Assembly: GCA_001819395.1 (NCBI GenBank)
Contig: MHMQ01000032.1
Span: 20,150-84,149 of the forward strand
Direction of reading: 5' to 3'
DNA: 64,000 nucleotides
From: Candidatus Niyogibacteria bacterium RIFCSPLOWO2_01_FULL_45_48
Lineage (GTDB): Bacteria > Patescibacteriota > Minisyncoccia > HO2-45-28
The notes below the pieces were generated by a model. It made no database searches, was not told the origin of the DNA, and saw only the letters and a list, made by a program, of their open reading frames with translations. The first letter of the stretch is position 1. Each line of letters starts with the position of its first letter. The position numbers were made by a program, and so were the translations under genes. Of the stretch, positions 33,673-40,890 are shown piece by piece.

Positions 33673-33837
33673 ATGCCGCAACCGAATCTATTTAAATTCA
33701 AATGTTCCGTTTGCAAACGCGGAAACTATTACAGCACCAAAAACAAGAAAAAAGTTGAGCGAAAAATAGAGCTCAAAAAGTTTTGTAAGTGGTGCAAAAA
33801 ACATACCTTGCATAAAGAGGCAAAAATCACTGCTTGA
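33673..33837 (+). CDS. rpmG: ribosomal protein L33
   Basis: 54 aa (below ORF-track cutoff): MPQPNLFKFKCSVCKRGNYYSTKNKK...KFCKWCKKHTLHKEAK, the CxxC...CxxC zinc ribbon of L33; TGA stop. Confidence 0.8.
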   Translation: MPQPNLFKFKCSVCKRGNYYSTKNKKKVERKIELKKFCKWCKKHTLHKEAKITA

Positions 33838-33878
33838 TTTTTGATATTATTATATAGTATTTTTTGCGCCATTTGCGC

Positions 33879-34014
33879 GAAAGGGGGTCGGGGAAAAGCG
33901 GAAGGGTTTCCCCGCGGAGGAAAACAGACCCGACGCGCGAAGCGGTCGGGGCGCTAGAAACCGAGGGTTTCTAGGGAGCACGAGCGAATCCCTTGAGGTG
34001 AGCGAGCTGCGACG
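33879..34014. repeat. 136-bp GC-rich structured element, copy 1
   Basis: GAAAGGGGGTCGGGG...CTAGAAACCGAGGGTTTCTAG...GCGAGCTGCGACG; identical to copies 2 and 3 except one substitution (A for C in ACAGACCCGAC). Confidence 0.9.
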
Positions 34015-34074
34015 AAAATGGTGCAGAAAGCACACGGTTCATAAAGAAGTCAAAATAACGGCTTAGATTTTTTT

Positions 34075-34145
34075 GGGGGTATGGTTCAATGGTAGAACAT
34101 TGGTCTCCAAAACCAAAGATCAGGGTTCGATTCCTTGTACCCCCG
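34075..34145 (+). tRNA. tRNA-Trp (anticodon CCA), copy 1
   Basis: Acceptor GGGGGTA/TACCCCC, D-stem GTTC/GAAC, anticodon stem TTGGT/ACCAA with loop CTCCAAA, T-arm CAGGG-TTCGATT-CCTTG (one G-U). Confidence 0.85.
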
Positions 34146-34193
34146 CATTGAAAATTTTGGCATCTTTTGATGCCTAGAATTTCAAATTTGATA

Positions 34194-34212
34194 GGTACAA
34201 GGAATCGAACCC
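34194..34212. repeat. inverted 19-nt copy of the tRNA-Trp T-arm/acceptor 3' end
   Basis: GGTACAAGGAATCGAACCC is the exact reverse complement of GGGTTCGATTCCTTGTACC in the upstream tRNA; second copy at 34530-34548. Confidence 0.85.
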
Positions 34213-34214
34213 AC

Positions 34215-34350
34215 GAAAGGGGGTCGGGGAAAAGCGGAAGGGTTTCCCCGCGGAGGAAAACAGCCCCGACGCGCGAAGCGGTCGGGGCGCTAGAAACCGA
34301 GGGTTTCTAGGGAGCACGAGCGAATCCCTTGAGGTGAGCGAGCTGCGACG
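34215..34350. repeat. 136-bp GC-rich element, copy 2
   Basis: Exact 336-bp period with copy 1. Confidence 0.9.
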
Positions 34351-34410
34351 AAAATGGTGCAGAAAGCACACGGTTCATAAAGAAGTCAAAATAACGGCTT
34401 AGATTTTTTT

Positions 34411-34481
34411 GGGGGTATGGTTCAATGGTAGAACATTGGTCTCCAAAACCAAAGATCAGGGTTCGATTCCTTGTACCCCCG
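34411..34481 (+). tRNA. tRNA-Trp (anticodon CCA), copy 2, identical to copy 1
   Basis: Same sequence 336 bp downstream. Confidence 0.85.
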
Positions 34482-34529
34482 CATTGAAAATTTTGGCATC
34501 TTTTGATGCCTAGAATTTCAAATTTGATA

Positions 34530-34548
34530 GGTACAAGGAATCGAACCC
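34530..34548. repeat. second inverted tRNA-Trp 3' fragment
   Basis: GGTACAAGGAATCGAACCC. Confidence 0.85.
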
Positions 34549-34550
34549 AC

Positions 34551-34686
34551 GAAAGGGGGTCGGGGAAAAGCGGAAGGGTTTCCCCGCGGAGGAAAACAGC
34601 CCCGACGCGCGAAGCGGTCGGGGCGCTAGAAACCGAGGGTTTCTAGGGAGCACGAGCGAATCCCTTGAGGTGAGCGAGCTGCGACG
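34551..34686. repeat. 136-bp GC-rich element, copy 3
   Basis: Identical to copy 2. Confidence 0.9.
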
Positions 34687-34730
34687 GGTTCGATTCCCTC
34701 AGCTCCCGCAAATTTAGACGGGCGATTTCT
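34687..34730 (+). pseudogene. decayed 3' remnant of a third tRNA-Trp copy
   Basis: GGTTCGATTCCCTCAGCTCCCGCA aligns to the tRNA-Trp T-loop/acceptor (GGGTTCGATTCCTTGTACCCCCGCA) with substitutions that break the stems; a further TATACCCCCGC fragment follows. Confidence 0.5.
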
Positions 34731-34805
34731 TATACCCCCGCTTTACACCAACTGTCTAATCCTTTAGTGTTTTAACAGATAGTTTTTTGATTTGAGGAGA
34801 CGAGC

Positions 34806-38527: not shown

Positions 38528-39856
38528 ATGACCAAAATTTCCGAATGTCTGAAAAAGAAAATTGGAGAAGAACTTTGGGAAACCTTAAAAAGAATTCGTC
38601 ACGAAAACAAAAAGGGGTTTATTAGAACCCCCGAAGCGAAAGCTGTTTTGTCCCGGCTTGTGGAAATTAATCTGAAGCCGAAAGAATTTGAGGACCTGCT
38701 TGGATACAAGTGGGGAAGTGTCAAAAACGCACTTTCTTATCACCAAATCAAGAAACCAGTTCACAAAGCCGAAGTTGCGGCACACGACATTAATTCCCCC
38801 GAATTTAGCGAAAGATTTTTTAAGTTTGTGCGCAGCAAGACGGTTGTGGAAATGTGCGAGGAATTTAATTTGAGTGACGAACAGGTAAGTACGCTTTTGG
38901 CAAATCCGCCTGCGGAACATGGCATATATAAGGATTCCAGCAGGCACACGGCTACCTACTTCTGTATTTTTAAAGGCAAAAATGTCGAGCCGAAAGATAG
39001 GATTTGGAATTATGTTTTGGCTAAAGACGATGGAGCCGCGGTTGATATCGTGTTTCCGAAAGATATTGGTTGGAAAAAAGAAAGGTCCGGAGATTCGTCT
39101 GAGCGCAGATTGGAAAAAATGCGCATTGTGCCCATGGCCGACATTTGGCTTGGCGACCCTCTTCACGACTCAGCGCTTTTGGACGAGAGAATAGCCTGGA
39201 TTGCCAGAGAGCCGCACATTTTTTGGTTTTTTAACGGAGATGCGATTAAACCCCCGACAGCAAAAGAAATTAAAGACGGCGTGCTGGAAAAACTTTATCT
39301 TGAGTTGAGAACAAAACTTGCGCCGATTTCACACAAGTGGCTTTGGGCGCAAGAAGGGTGTTTTGAGACGAAGTTGCATGCGACCAAAGACGCATTTGAT
39401 CCGATTGACGACCTTTGTGATGAGTGGGATGTGCCATATTTCAGAACTCCGGTTTCCGTCGGCCTTCATTGGGCTGGAAATTTATTTAAGTTTTACTGTA
39501 TTCATGGAAAATCGCAGGCTCAGAAAAAGGGTTCAAAAATCAACGCCATCGCGCGCATCCTTGGTGAAGTGGAATTCAACCATTTTTATGTTATGTCTCA
39601 CATCAAGGATTCGATTTCTAGCAAACAAGTGCGTGTTTCCCAAGACGTGTTGAATTTTGATTTGGCGGAAAAAAAACAATATTTATTCATCACACCCTCT
39701 TTTGTGAAGTACGATCGGTCTCGTGATGCGAAGTGGGGATATCCTCTTCCTGCCAGAGGGCAAGCAAGCTGCGCCTTGTATATAGACGGCGATTATCATT
39801 TTTATTCTTCACCAATAGCCACAGGTCTGGTTGCTGTGGGGGAGGACAACATATGA
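38528..39856 (+). CDS. calcineurin-like metallophosphoesterase paralog with degenerate metal-binding motifs (probable pseudoenzyme) plus unknown N-domain
   Basis: 442 aa; aligns motif-for-motif with next gene: VPMADIWLGD / LVPLSDLQWG, FFNGDAIKP / FLNGDILNN, but GNHE replaced by QEGCFE and GHVHE by SHIKD; RBS AAGGAG 8 nt before ATG. Confidence 0.5.
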   Translation: MTKISECLKKKIGEELWETLKRIRHENKKGFIRTPEAKAVLSRLVEINLKPKEFEDLLGYKWGSVKNALSYHQIKKPVHKAEVAAHDINSPEFSERFFKFVRSKTVVEMCEEFNLSDEQVSTLLANPPAEHGIYKDSSRHTATYFCIFKGKNVEPKDRIWNYVLAKDDGAAVDIVFPKDIGWKKERSGDSSERRLEKMRIVPMADIWLGDPLHDSALLDERIAWIAREPHIFWFFNGDAIKPPTAKEIKDGVLEKLYLELRTKLAPISHKWLWAQEGCFETKLHATKDAFDPIDDLCDEWDVPYFRTPVSVGLHWAGNLFKFYCIHGKSQAQKKGSKINAIARILGEVEFNHFYVMSHIKDSISSKQVRVSQDVLNFDLAEKKQYLFITPSFVKYDRSRDAKWGYPLPARGQASCALYIDGDYHFYSSPIATGLVAVGEDNI

Positions 39857-40890
39857 CCTCGCAAAAATTCACCTTACTTGGAAAAAAATTTGAAGAATTA
39901 ATGAAAAGAGGAATTGTTCCCAAAGAATCTTTACTCAAAGAGTCCGGTTTTTCGGAAGAGCAGATTAAAAAAATGCTTGGCCGCGATGTGGAAGGCGGCC
40001 GCATTTTTGAACAAAGGGTTGAAAAGGAAATTTATTACCGCTTAATCAGAGAAACACCGCCGGTAGTTACTCAGGAGCGCGTTTGGCAATACGCCCAGTG
40101 CGCGGATCGCAGAAAGCCGTATTTCTGGTTTCAATTTCCGAATACCGATTGGAAAAAAATAATTTTGGTTCCTCTTTCCGACCTTCAGTGGGGTTCGGAA
40201 GAATGTGACGTCGCCCAACTTAAAGATTATGTCAAATATATCGGGGAGAATGACCATGTTTTCGCGTTTCTCAACGGAGATATCCTGAATAACGCTTTGC
40301 CGGATTCTCCCGGCGGTTCAATTTTTTGGGATGTGGCGAGACCCCGCGAGCAAGTAAGGACCGTGATTGATTTACTGGCCCCAATCGCTCACAAAATTCT
40401 TTGGGCATTGCCCGGTAATCACGAAGAGCGCACAATCAAGAGGGCAGATATAGATCCTTTGTTCTGGATTTGCCAGAAACTTGGCATTCCTTATTCGGAT
40501 CAGCCAATTTTTGCCGATATTCTTTGGCGGAGCCACCGTTTCAATTTCTATTGTTTTCATGGCATCAGCGGTTCCAGAACTATGGGTGGCAAGTTAAACG
40601 CGGCCATGCGTCCGATTGATTGGACCGAGTTCACGATGTTTTACATAATGGGGCATGTTCATGAACCAATGGGCAACCCTGTTACAAGAAGGTGTGTTCT
40701 TAGGGAGTATGACAGCAAGGGGGGTTTGACCGGCTTGCGGGTTGTTGACAGAGATCAGTATGTGATTATATGCGCGGCTTGGCTGAAGTTTTGGGGAGGT
40801 TACGGCGCAAAGATGGGTTTTTCTCCGCAGTCTCAAGGCGGAACCCCGTGCCTTTTGTATAAAAACGGCGATTACGGAATCTCGGAGTAA
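39853..40890 (+). CDS. calcineurin-like metallophosphoesterase (Mre11/SbcD-type motif set) with ~110-aa N-terminal extension
   Basis: ATG 39853 overlaps previous stop (ATGA), GGAGGA 6 nt upstream; motifs SDLQWG, GDILN, GNHEE, FHGISGS, GHVHEP. Confidence 0.6.
   Translation: MTSQKFTLLGKKFEELMKRGIVPKESLLKESGFSEEQIKKMLGRDVEGGRIFEQRVEKEIYYRLIRETPPVVTQERVWQYAQCADRRKPYFWFQFPNTDWKKIILVPLSDLQWGSEECDVAQLKDYVKYIGENDHVFAFLNGDILNNALPDSPGGSIFWDVARPREQVRTVIDLLAPIAHKILWALPGNHEERTIKRADIDPLFWICQKLGIPYSDQPIFADILWRSHRFNFYCFHGISGSRTMGGKLNAAMRPIDWTEFTMFYIMGHVHEPMGNPVTRRCVLREYDSKGGLTGLRVVDRDQYVIICAAWLKFWGGYGAKMGFSPQSQGGTPCLLYKNGDYGISE

Follow-up and report, generated by a model that had tools for sequence, protein, structure and literature searches.

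A family of small elements without open reading frames at the ends of tRNA and protein genes in Patescibacteria

Described systems and the element in the window

The genomes of CPR bacteria are tiny, and few mobile elements have been recognised in them. Integron cassettes with their attC sites, and CTX phages with attP(+), use folded single strands as attachment sites; MITEs, REPINs and the GC-rich palindromic or double-hairpin elements of organelles are small, non-coding, multi-copy and rich in hairpins; and free-standing homing-endonuclease insertions, such as that in Allomyces atp6, supply a gene end of foreign origin, the native one persisting downstream as a pseudogene. Integrase-type elements, among them prophages, islands, CIMEs and the islands found at the 5′ end of dusA (PMC4482086), also insert within a conserved gene, where they likewise replace the severed end, leave the native end beyond the insert as a direct repeat, and spread horizontally.

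The element that we describe resembles each of these in part. It was encountered in a 64,000-nucleotide stretch (hereafter the window) of contig MHMQ01000032.1 from Candidatus Niyogibacteria bacterium RIFCSPLOWO2_01_FULL_45_48. Compared with integrase-type elements it lacks both integrase and cargo, its entire insert measures about 150-300 bp, one conserved core serves many unrelated targets, and beside that core stands the crossover sequence in inverted copy. Its likeness to attC and attP(+) lies in the inverted arms, which stand approximately 60-140 nt apart and can fold into a stem mimicking the target duplex, such that a crossover in one arm would give the integrated order of inverted arm, loop and hybrid arm. 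As in those systems cargo lies upstream of the site, the "cargo" of the CPR element being a gene end only. Sites of the attC type keep structure rather than sequence, whereas the sequence of the CPR core is conserved. By eye, the T-loop arms (xTCGAAC ... GTTCGAx) come near the R″/R′ boxes of integrons (RYYYAAC/GTTRRRY), but the arms at rpmG, gap, dnaB and HMA misfit that pattern, and an integron core site was rejected. No intI, attI array or dif-like site was seen, and no recombinase gene recurs at 40 loci of the family.

Like MITEs (surveyed in PMC11602168) and REPINs, the element is small, non-coding, multi-copy, GC-rich relative to its genome and full of hairpins. Unlike those of a MITE, its terminal repeats are not constant, each arm differing by locus and copying the local target; its duplication is long, variable and xenologous where a MITE has a short target-site duplication of fixed length; and no related transposase-bearing parent was found for it. 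Homing-endonuclease insertions place a foreign C-terminal segment at a precise point with the native segment downstream, as the CPR element does, but the latter has a structured core and an inverted arm and no endonuclease ORF. Group I introns of patescibacterial tRNA genes sit at 35/36, in the anticodon loop, and are spliced out (PMC13011429). A group I intron was rejected here, the tRNA-Trp being uninterrupted, the element lying outside it, and no match to Intron_gpI being found.

Two elements and one repeat array

All features given below lie on the + strand. TRF reports a single array (33878-34686, period 336, 2.4 copies, 99% matches), which bears out the 336-bp period of an earlier note on this DNA. 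The core occurs in it three times, at 33878-34014, 34214-34350 and 34550-34686; it measures 137 nt, not the 136 bp of the note, which was right that it is GC-rich (64%, against 45% for the window) and that a single base sets copy 1 apart from copies 2 and 3 (at 33928, A in the first and C in the others). Two mutually identical, uninterrupted tRNA-Trp(CCA) genes were found as described (34075-34146 and 34411-34482; ARAGORN, and 73.6 bits in Rfam), as were the hairpins named. Two elements are present in the window: element 1 in the 3′ end of rpmG and element 2 in the T-loop of tRNA-Trp.

Element 1 follows an intact rpmG (33673-33837), an ORF with L33 homologues. Its last 16 codons (33787-33837) are the working copy paired with the element. 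The nearest relative, L016, has an element in rpmG and none in tRNA-Trp; from its rpmG the window diverges by 7.9% before the breakpoint and 25% after it. To the left of core copy 1 stands an inverted arm that the earlier note had missed (33860-33877), an inverted copy of the rpmG segment AAGTGGTGCAAAAAA plus GCG, which is complementary to a displaced rpmG segment and forms a 21-nt stem with 34013-34033. Core copy 1 itself (hairpins H1 33890-33913, H2 33928-33951 and H3 33954-33974) is followed by that displaced segment, a second rpmG 3′ end of 16 codons and a stop (KWCRKHTVHKEVKITA and the stop codon; 34016-34066), which repeat comparison revealed inside what had been taken for a plain spacer of 60 bp. 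It is 73% identical to the real rpmG end over 56 nt, its reading frame is uninterrupted, and of the 12 positions at which it departs from the working copy 9 are third codon positions. In the window an open frame runs across the core and on into the rpmG fragment, as it does, by hand translation, at L016.

The left arm of element 2 is an inverted copy, 19/19, of tRNA-Trp positions 34123-34141. It lies at 34194-34212 and, in a second copy, at 34530-34548, and both 19-nt copies of the T-arm and acceptor are 100% complementary to tRNA-Trp, as first reported; a spacer hairpin, GGCATC-TTTT-GATGCC (34159-34174), separates tRNA and arm. Core copy 3 (34550-34686) is fused to a tRNA-Trp 3′ fragment at 34686-34710 that had been described as the degenerate remnant of a third tRNA. 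That description does not hold: over its T-stem 3′ strand and acceptor the fragment agrees at 15/15 positions with tRNA-Trp from a different CPR lineage (L021), which makes it a foreign allele, and its T-loop part forms the 12-bp right arm with 34537-34548. A decayed fragment does exist, but at 34718-34741, and it is of the resident type (19/22 in the aligned stretch). A direct repeat of the tRNA-Trp 3′ end is present at both borders of the tRNA-targeted element, and in the window there is no ORF between these repeats. Within 34686-34741 the foreign-allele fragment comes first and the resident-type remnant after it.

Elements 1 and 2 are 336 bp apart in direct orientation, and their cores are 99% identical. 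One unequal crossover between the near-identical cores, or the assembler's choice in resolving the repeat, would yield the order core-unit-core-unit-core with two tRNA-Trp genes, and two independent elements followed by such an event are a better reading than the recent tandem duplication first proposed. The extra unit consists of the second tRNA-Trp and the middle core, copy 2, which is limited to this window's version of the locus; a second displaced rpmG 3′ end (34352-34402) is part of what was duplicated. That this unit is an assembly artefact is only slightly short of an even chance. Thirteen other assemblies of the same population have one unit fewer, and the 10 contigs of that population that span the locus all read core-unit-core with one tRNA-Trp; several other contigs break inside the repeat, one scaffold carries N runs at that point, and a pattern specific to the extra junction had 0 matches in JGI metagenome contigs. 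Collapsed contigs are expected either way, however, because short-read assemblers collapse 336-bp tandem repeats, and the SNP pattern of copy 1 stands in consistent order across the window copies. An artefact would in any case touch copy number alone and leave the elements themselves unaffected.

The family, its core and its targets

The core is a member of a family of small, ORF-less elements that is widespread in Patescibacteria (CPR). Its 5′ 20-mer (the CGAAAGGGGGTCGGGGAAAA motif, with three exact copies in the window) was sought in 185,579 species genomes and occurs in 40 stretches of 31 assemblies, of which the 34 with a named taxon are all CPR and 6 carry no taxon name. A covariance model, R1, whose seed alignment includes core copy 1, scores the window cores at 79.7-79.8 bits (79.7 for copy 1, 79.8 for copies 2 and 3; E about 2e-15; model positions 1-114) and also detects copies in which the 20-mer is not exact, such as those that follow four tRNAs in L035, four in number. 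Across the family the core is 83-137 nt long and the spacers are mostly under 75 nt. The order within the core is 5′ CGAAAGGGGGTCGGGGAAAA, H1, an optional H2, H3, GGAG and an optional H4, usually with CGACG at the end.

By Rfam and literature searches the family is uncatalogued. No Rfam 15 family matches the core, whether in the window with E allowed to reach 10 or at eight other loci with a limit of 1, so that the known RNA family which the earlier note had allowed for did not appear, and the full-text literature yielded no description of such elements, the nearest paper being the one on group I introns in patescibacterial tRNA genes, a separate matter. ARAGORN finds no tmRNA in the window, and with ARAGORN and Rfam both negative we rejected the core plus fragment as a tRNA-like molecule, a tmRNA or a permuted tRNA; folded by hand, the two together give a T stem of only 3 bp, and the bases that remain do not suffice for D and anticodon arms. 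A coding core was rejected as well: there is no conserved start, the similarity to L33 ends at KWC, and the minus-strand ORFs, correctly described at the outset as mere translations of the element, have no homologue among 5.8 billion proteins.

A structured ncRNA co-transcribed with tRNA-Trp, one of three explanations originally offered, is unlikely because at 5′-end targets the core lies antisense to the gene. More generally, the core could be a structured ncRNA with a cellular role, such as one in tRNA metabolism, and its closing stem would be all that the flanking repeats supply. Consistent with this, 20 nt are invariant from Saccharibacteria to Parcubacteria, and compensatory changes preserve the hairpins; the covariation check of the fold gave 18 distinct H3 stems with such changes at 8 of 9 pairs. 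On the + strand the loops are GNRA-like and the stem mismatches purine-purine, and folding z is −3.3 for the minus strand, −1.7 for the + strand and −3.2 for single-stranded DNA including the arms (+ strand). We nevertheless regard a cellular ncRNA as improbable, given that Rfam is silent even at E = 10, that a promoter scan found no sigma-70-like site, that copy number and position differ among close relatives, and that the strand of the core is set by the duplication and not by the gene (sense at 3′-end targets, antisense at the 5′ ends of dnaB and HMA). Moreover, G·U pairs number only 1 of 162 and the variable hairpins are, by eye, perfectly Watson-Crick; DNA palindromes therefore fit better than RNA helices. 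If an RNA serves the element itself, it is compatible with the explanation that we prefer.

The layout shared by the family is an intact gene terminus, the first 9-21 nt of that terminus in inverted copy, the core, and a displaced second terminus; the inverted tRNA fragment is no side product but the left arm of the closing stem, which defines every element. More than 15 different targets are involved, mostly tRNA T-loops (more than 12 tRNA species precede copies), with the 3′ ends of rpmG and gap and the 5′ ends of dnaB and HMA besides. The insertion site in rpmG is shared by three lineages and that in gap by two. The element does not always adjoin a tRNA gene: a same-strand tRNA ends 7-119 nt upstream of 26 of the 43 copies examined, and others lie in rpmG, gap, dnaB and HMA. 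At tRNA loci the arm matches the intact tRNA almost perfectly, and a direct copy of the T-loop-to-3′-end sequence follows the core. Arms are complementary to their own locus and not to others (p = 1.5e-10; p = 3e-8 without the generic T-loop part). The shortest duplications are 17 nt long and the longest exceed 70 nt; L055 has a perfect repeat of 53 nt. Where one genome carries two copies (L048/L049, L034a/b), the core is identical from CG to CG and the spacer is not.

Of the three original explanations, a mobile element targeting tRNA-Trp comes closest, the element being multi-copy and absent from the tRNA-Trp of L016, although its range of targets is far wider than that gene. The remaining one, the scar of an integrative element, does explain the duplicated gene end. 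In its general form it would make these loci the attL and attR left behind by integrase-borne islands or prophages that were later deleted. Direct repeats of a tRNA 3′ end are the classic footprint of such islands, which also yield a foreign working end and a displaced native one, and strain variant L015/L006 has a conventional island at the tRNA-Trp end. Still, we find this account very improbable: a single conserved core is shared by all these targets, cores and spacers are small and uniform in size, and no integrase remnant was found at the window locus or at the 40 loci. Pfam searches of genes neighbouring the window locus gave no recombinase and no RT, and in all-against-all clustering of ORFs from approximately 4 kb around the 40 loci only translations of the element itself recur. 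Two core motifs had 0 matches in 2.9 million viral contigs and phage records matched tRNA-Trp alone, on which grounds a phage or viral origin was rejected too.

Foreign gene ends and the proposed route of insertion

The direction of replacement is read from two gap loci and from the codon statistics of four short segments. In the gap gene of L063, GC3 is 0.73 in the body, 0.29 in the last 17 codons of the working copy and 0.71 in the displaced copy; at L061 the corresponding values are 0.77, 0.41 and 0.79. A relative of L063 (L065, 89% aa identity) has the native gap end, homologous downstream DNA and no element, and relative to this empty site the insert in L063 is 149 nt. Among coding duplicates, 29 of 38 differences fall at third codon positions (p = 7e-8). 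Judged by composition, the working gap end is foreign and the displaced copy native in both L063 and L061. A plain target-site duplication was rejected on the composition and codon-position data, and RecA-type allelic transfer as the sole mechanism was rejected as well, the foreign tract of L063 beginning exactly at the duplication boundary, where only about 8 nt are identical. A DGR (VR/TR) was dismissed on other grounds: the differences involve all bases and lie mostly at third codon positions, and there is no RT nearby.

Building on the family with its distribution and anatomy, on arms specific to their locus, on working ends of foreign and displaced ends of native origin, and on the one pair of occupied and empty sites, all of them established above, we think it probable that this is a small, protein-less insertion element that replaces gene ends, importing a spare one. 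A block composed of a gene terminus (with its terminator or promoter region), an inverted arm and a core would enter the host's homologous gene exactly at the sequence copied by the arm. The imported terminus would become the working end of the gene, which would stay functional, and the host terminus, displaced beyond the core, would pair with the arm in a stem that closes the core. Integration may proceed by site-specific or microhomology-guided recombination at the arm sequence, carried out by a predicted enzyme encoded elsewhere, with the folded arm-core-arm hairpin probably serving as the attachment site; the element, seen here in integrated forms and in no free or circular one, may spread horizontally between CPR cells. 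Against the model in its simplest form, the displaced acceptor strand is unable to pair with the 5′ half of the intact gene in the window, at L029 and at about one-third of tRNA loci, and in the window and L029 an "old" right flank separates the resident-type duplicate from the core. At such loci, either replacement took in the complete tRNA gene or the core brought its old right flank along, and the simple model predicts neither.

The identity of the core alone within a genome would fit a mobile unit made of the core only, its arms being created anew at each insertion. In a copy-and-paste element of this kind, with RNA or single-stranded DNA as the template, a nick in the target would prime copying of the core, the strand would snap back to produce the inverted arm, and a second, staggered nick would generate the long and variable target duplication. 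Arms that are always specific to their locus and duplications of variable length agree with such a scheme, and the old right flank of the window and L029 resembles 3′ transduction. It predicts, however, two native copies, whereas the working copies of L063 and L061 are compositionally foreign, and coding duplicates differ in the fashion of orthologues; no reverse transcriptase lies near any of the 40 loci, and group II introns are reported to be absent from Patescibacteria (PMC13011429). We give copy-and-paste little credence.

Within the gene-end replacement that we prefer, we can entertain, doubtfully, a further step: the inverted arm may act as an address label, with a putative enzyme encoded elsewhere recognising the core, so that the element could be re-addressed to any conserved gene end. 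If this were true, the element would represent a new class of hairpin- or base-pairing-guided site-specific insertion, at the DNA or RNA level, in which the cut gene is repaired by an imported spare end.

In CPR assemblies, contig breaks, tRNA fragments, tandem tRNA duplications and gene-end pseudogenes can arise from this family, and the 20-nt motif together with covariance model R1 now permits these elements to be masked or annotated. In a larger context, a family of elements in tRNA genes, rpmG, gap and dnaB across the phylum would silently give essential genes foreign ends, and gene-end swapping would be a route by which portions of core genes are replaced horizontally. Should the arms indeed determine the target, these elements would also constitute a minimal, re-addressable integration device.

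The tandem array and its two elements

The window holds a single tandem array, at 33878-34686, to which Tandem Repeats Finder assigns a period of 336, 2.4 copies and 99% matches. Its three cores, GC-rich blocks of 137 nt starting at 33878, 34214 and 34550, have a G+C content of 64% compared with 45% for the window, and a single base, 33928, is the sole difference among them. Each of two identical tRNA-Trp(CCA) genes (34075-34146 and 34411-34482) is followed by a hairpin, GGCATC-TTTT-GATGCC, and then by 19 nt that repeat its T-arm and acceptor in inverted form without a mismatch. The earlier note's description of the period, the three blocks, the two tRNA genes and the inverted copies is borne out. 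It gave the right length for the 60 bp between core and tRNA but missed their content: the final 16 codons of rpmG and its stop occur here a second time, with 73% identity to the true end of the gene at 33787-33842; it also missed the left arm of core 1, an inverted copy (33860-33877) complementary to this displaced rpmG segment. A tRNA-Trp remnant is indeed fused to core 3, but the fused piece is not decayed: 34686-34710 is an exact T-stem/acceptor copy of another allele, matching the tRNA-Trp of a locus from another assembly (L021) at 15 of 15 positions, and a decayed fragment of resident type follows at 34718-34741.

The array contains two elements, each with an intact gene terminus, an inverted left arm and a core, and with a displaced second copy of the terminus beyond. 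Element 1 (arm 33860-33877, core 33878-34014) lies in the 3′ end of rpmG and is shared with L016, a locus of the closest relative found via L33 (GCA_038063435.1; L33 93% identical); element 2 (arm 34530-34548, core 34550-34686) lies in the tRNA-Trp T-loop and is absent from L016, where nothing of the kind stands behind tRNA-Trp. The two cores match at 136 of 137 positions, the result of either recent copying or gene conversion. Since the elements are in direct orientation 336 bp apart, one unequal exchange doubles the intervening segment, tRNA-Trp included.

All ten locus-spanning contigs have exactly one 336-bp unit fewer, that is, core, rpmG fragment, tRNA-Trp, arm, core. The compared assemblies of the same groundwater population include GCA_001819455.1 and GCA_001819415.1; in other assemblies of that population, at least 19 contigs carry the flanking methyltransferase and at least 23 the upstream ORF. 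The extra-junction pattern (arm, core, rpmG fragment) has one match in the window and none in JGI metagenome contigs. Because the spanning contigs agree and the JGI contigs lack the extra junction, two cores around one tRNA-Trp are solidly established as the basic structure. A third core with a second tRNA-Trp is uncertain, reflecting either unequal crossing-over of the two cores in this particular strain or a choice made in assembly; several contigs end within the repeat, and one scaffold has runs of N there. In L014 (JGI 3300025311) core copy 1 lacks 19 nt of hairpin H2, and in L007 (GCA_001819415.1) both cores have runs of N; these are either repeat-caused assembly trouble or real microvariation.

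Other features of these loci deserve mention. In a strain variant (L015, 2990-3371; L006, 1-345), unrelated DNA is inserted exactly at the tRNA-Trp 3′ end, equivalent to 34146/34147; it has CCCCGC as a 6-nt flanking repeat and the look of an ordinary island lying between tRNA and spacer-arm-core, independent of the element. At 2606-2790 of L016, a complete tRNA-Thr(GGT), bracketed by the 13-nt inverted repeat ATCCAGCCCTTTA / TAAAGGGCTGGAT, is nested between two halves of a window-type tRNA-Thr remnant that has small palindromes in place of its D-loop and T-loop. In the window, adjacent, overlapping ORFs at 38528-39856 and 39733-40890 encode paralogs of 442 and 385 aa (26% identity, E 1e-35) whose sole domain match is a weak one to calcineurin-like phosphoesterase.

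A core family in Patescibacteria

The L016 core is homologous and shorter (~107 nt), and occupies the same place, between rpmG and the displaced rpmG end plus tRNA-Trp. A 20-mer common to both cores, CGAAAGGGGGTCGGGGAAAA, was scanned in 185,579 species (one genome each), where we estimate that ~1 chance match would be expected. It occurs in 40 stretches from 31 assemblies, often several per genome; 34 stretches belong to named Patescibacteria (Parcubacteria groups, Paceibacterota, Saccharibacteria), and the other 6 bear no taxon name. The earlier note had suggested looking for copies in related genomes, and these are plentiful, though not always next to a tRNA. Trained on 34 curated copies, a covariance model, R1, gives those in the window about 80 bits (E about 2e-15) and also detects members without the exact 20-mer. 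Motif and R1 searches found no further core elsewhere in the 64-kb window. Rfam 15 contains no match, contrary to the earlier note's alternative that the core is a known RNA family; two core motifs had no match among 2.9 million viral contigs. In locus L035 (2739-6415), R1 places four members within 4 kb, two of them without the exact 20-mer; three lie 15-54 nt behind tRNA-Phe, -Arg and -Gly, and the fourth 159 nt behind tRNA-Pro.

Cores measure 83-137 nt (median 111) and follow one order: an invariant 5′ block, hairpin H1 (GGGGAAA...TTTCCCC, its tip variable), a short joiner rich in purines, hairpin H2 in some copies, hairpin H3, GGAG, hairpin H4 in some copies and usually CGACG. Among 33 copies, the H3 stem takes 18 different forms, and 8 of its 9 pairs show compensatory changes. 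Since G.U pairs are almost absent from these stems (1 of 162) and the variable hairpins look, by eye, like perfect palindromes, the evidence leans towards DNA hairpins. The loops, by contrast, resemble GNRA tetraloops and the stem mismatches are purine-purine on the + strand, which leaves room for an RNA form. The elements contain no ORF, and no gene family recurs nearby. Mini-palindromes of two kinds, TCCGCC-NNNN-GGCGGA and CCTGCCTGC(C/T)GGCAGGCAGG, occupy differing positions in different cores and in the tRNA remnant (cores of L037, L041, L043, L061 and L062; L016 2620-2636; L048, L049 and L061); both look like separate tiny palindromic insertions.

Targets and the origin of the gene ends

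Elements are flanked by an intact gene end upstream and a second copy of the same end downstream. The left arm is an inverted copy, 9-21 nt long, of the sequence to the right of the core, and its complementarity is far greater within than between loci (p = 1.5e-10; p = 3e-8 without the generic T-loop part). In 26 of 43 cases a same-strand tRNA, of more than 12 species overall, ends 7-119 nt before the core; here the arm matches the intact tRNA near-perfectly from G53 or T54 onward, and the copy downstream begins in the T-loop and ends slightly beyond the tRNA 3′ end. At least five additional copies at contig ends have T-loop-like arms. Among protein-coding targets, rpmG is hit in its 3′ end in three lineages (window, L016, L041), always at one codon, and gap likewise in two (L061, L063), at identical Gly-Tyr-Val codons. 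Two genes are targeted at the 5′ end: dnaB over its first 17 codons in L055, with a 53-nt perfect repeat, and a gene with an HMA domain over its first 14 codons in L053. Core and gene are on opposite strands at 5′-end targets, so core orientation follows the intact/displaced order and not gene transcription. In the spacer of the dnaB element (L055, 370-420), the imported copy has 21 nt more than the native upstream region; these create a perfect TATAAT box that points to the core and is separated from the left arm by 6 nt. A reversed arrangement, outside this layout, occurs in L056 (3535-3716), where the 3′ end of a minus-strand tRNA-Met directly adjoins the element, which has a T-loop fragment on its far side.

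Which copy is foreign can be read from G+C at third codon positions (GC3) in gap, taking the last 17 codons as the working end: gene body, working end and displaced copy behind the core have values of 0.73, 0.29 and 0.71 in L063, and 0.77, 0.41 and 0.79 in L061. L065, a relative of L063 (GAPDH 89% identical), has a native-type gap end without an element, and the DNA directly after it is homologous to that after the displaced copy in L063. This empty site defines the L063 insert as 149 nt long, made up of a 54-nt replacement end, a 9-nt arm, a 5-nt linker and a core of about 81 nt; its start coincides exactly with that of the duplication. Comparing the paired copies in four coding targets gives 5, 4 and 29 differences at first, second and third codon positions, and 22 codon changes are synonymous versus 10 non-synonymous. 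The third-position excess (p = 7e-8 against an even spread; p = 2e-4 against the 47% we estimate for a decaying pseudogene) implies that the two copies evolved in different genomes, each as a working gene. Compared with L016, the rpmG of the window has diverged by 7.9% before the breakpoint and 25% after it. Because GC3, empty site and codon statistics agree, we conclude from sequence that the replacement terminus is imported by the element and the native terminus displaced, base composition at the two gap loci settling the direction.

How the elements might move

Comparison of loci establishes precise insertion at the arm-copied sequence, import of a gene end with the element, reuse of the same sites in distant lineages, and presence or absence that varies between relatives. 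Insertion would proceed by recombination at the arm sequence, through an enzyme encoded elsewhere. At the L063 junction the stretch of identity, ~8 nt only, is probably too short for ordinary homologous recombination, and nothing upstream of this point belongs to the foreign tract. In CTX phage and integron attC the attachment site is a folded hairpin. The arm-core-arm layout resembles one end of an integrated element with such a site, and we therefore favor, with moderate confidence, a folded single strand as the attachment site.

Some observations fit less well. Element 2 has an arm that agrees with the resident tRNA-Trp at 19 of 19 positions, yet the fragment joined to its core is the foreign allele, with the resident-type fragment 7 nt beyond; a right flank made of the same three parts is seen in L029, a locus from another assembly. 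At about one third of tRNA loci, the acceptor strand of the displaced copy is unable to pair with the 5′ half of the intact gene. In such events either whole tRNA genes would be replaced or the core may carry its former right flank with it. This possible transport of the old flank, and the finding that identity between copies within a genome is confined to the core, keep copy-and-paste of the core alive beside recombination at the arm.

The descriptive claims are well supported. The observation is real and leads to a CPR-wide family of miniature, ORF-less insertion elements that replace the ends of genes, of which we found no description in Rfam 15 or in the literature searched.
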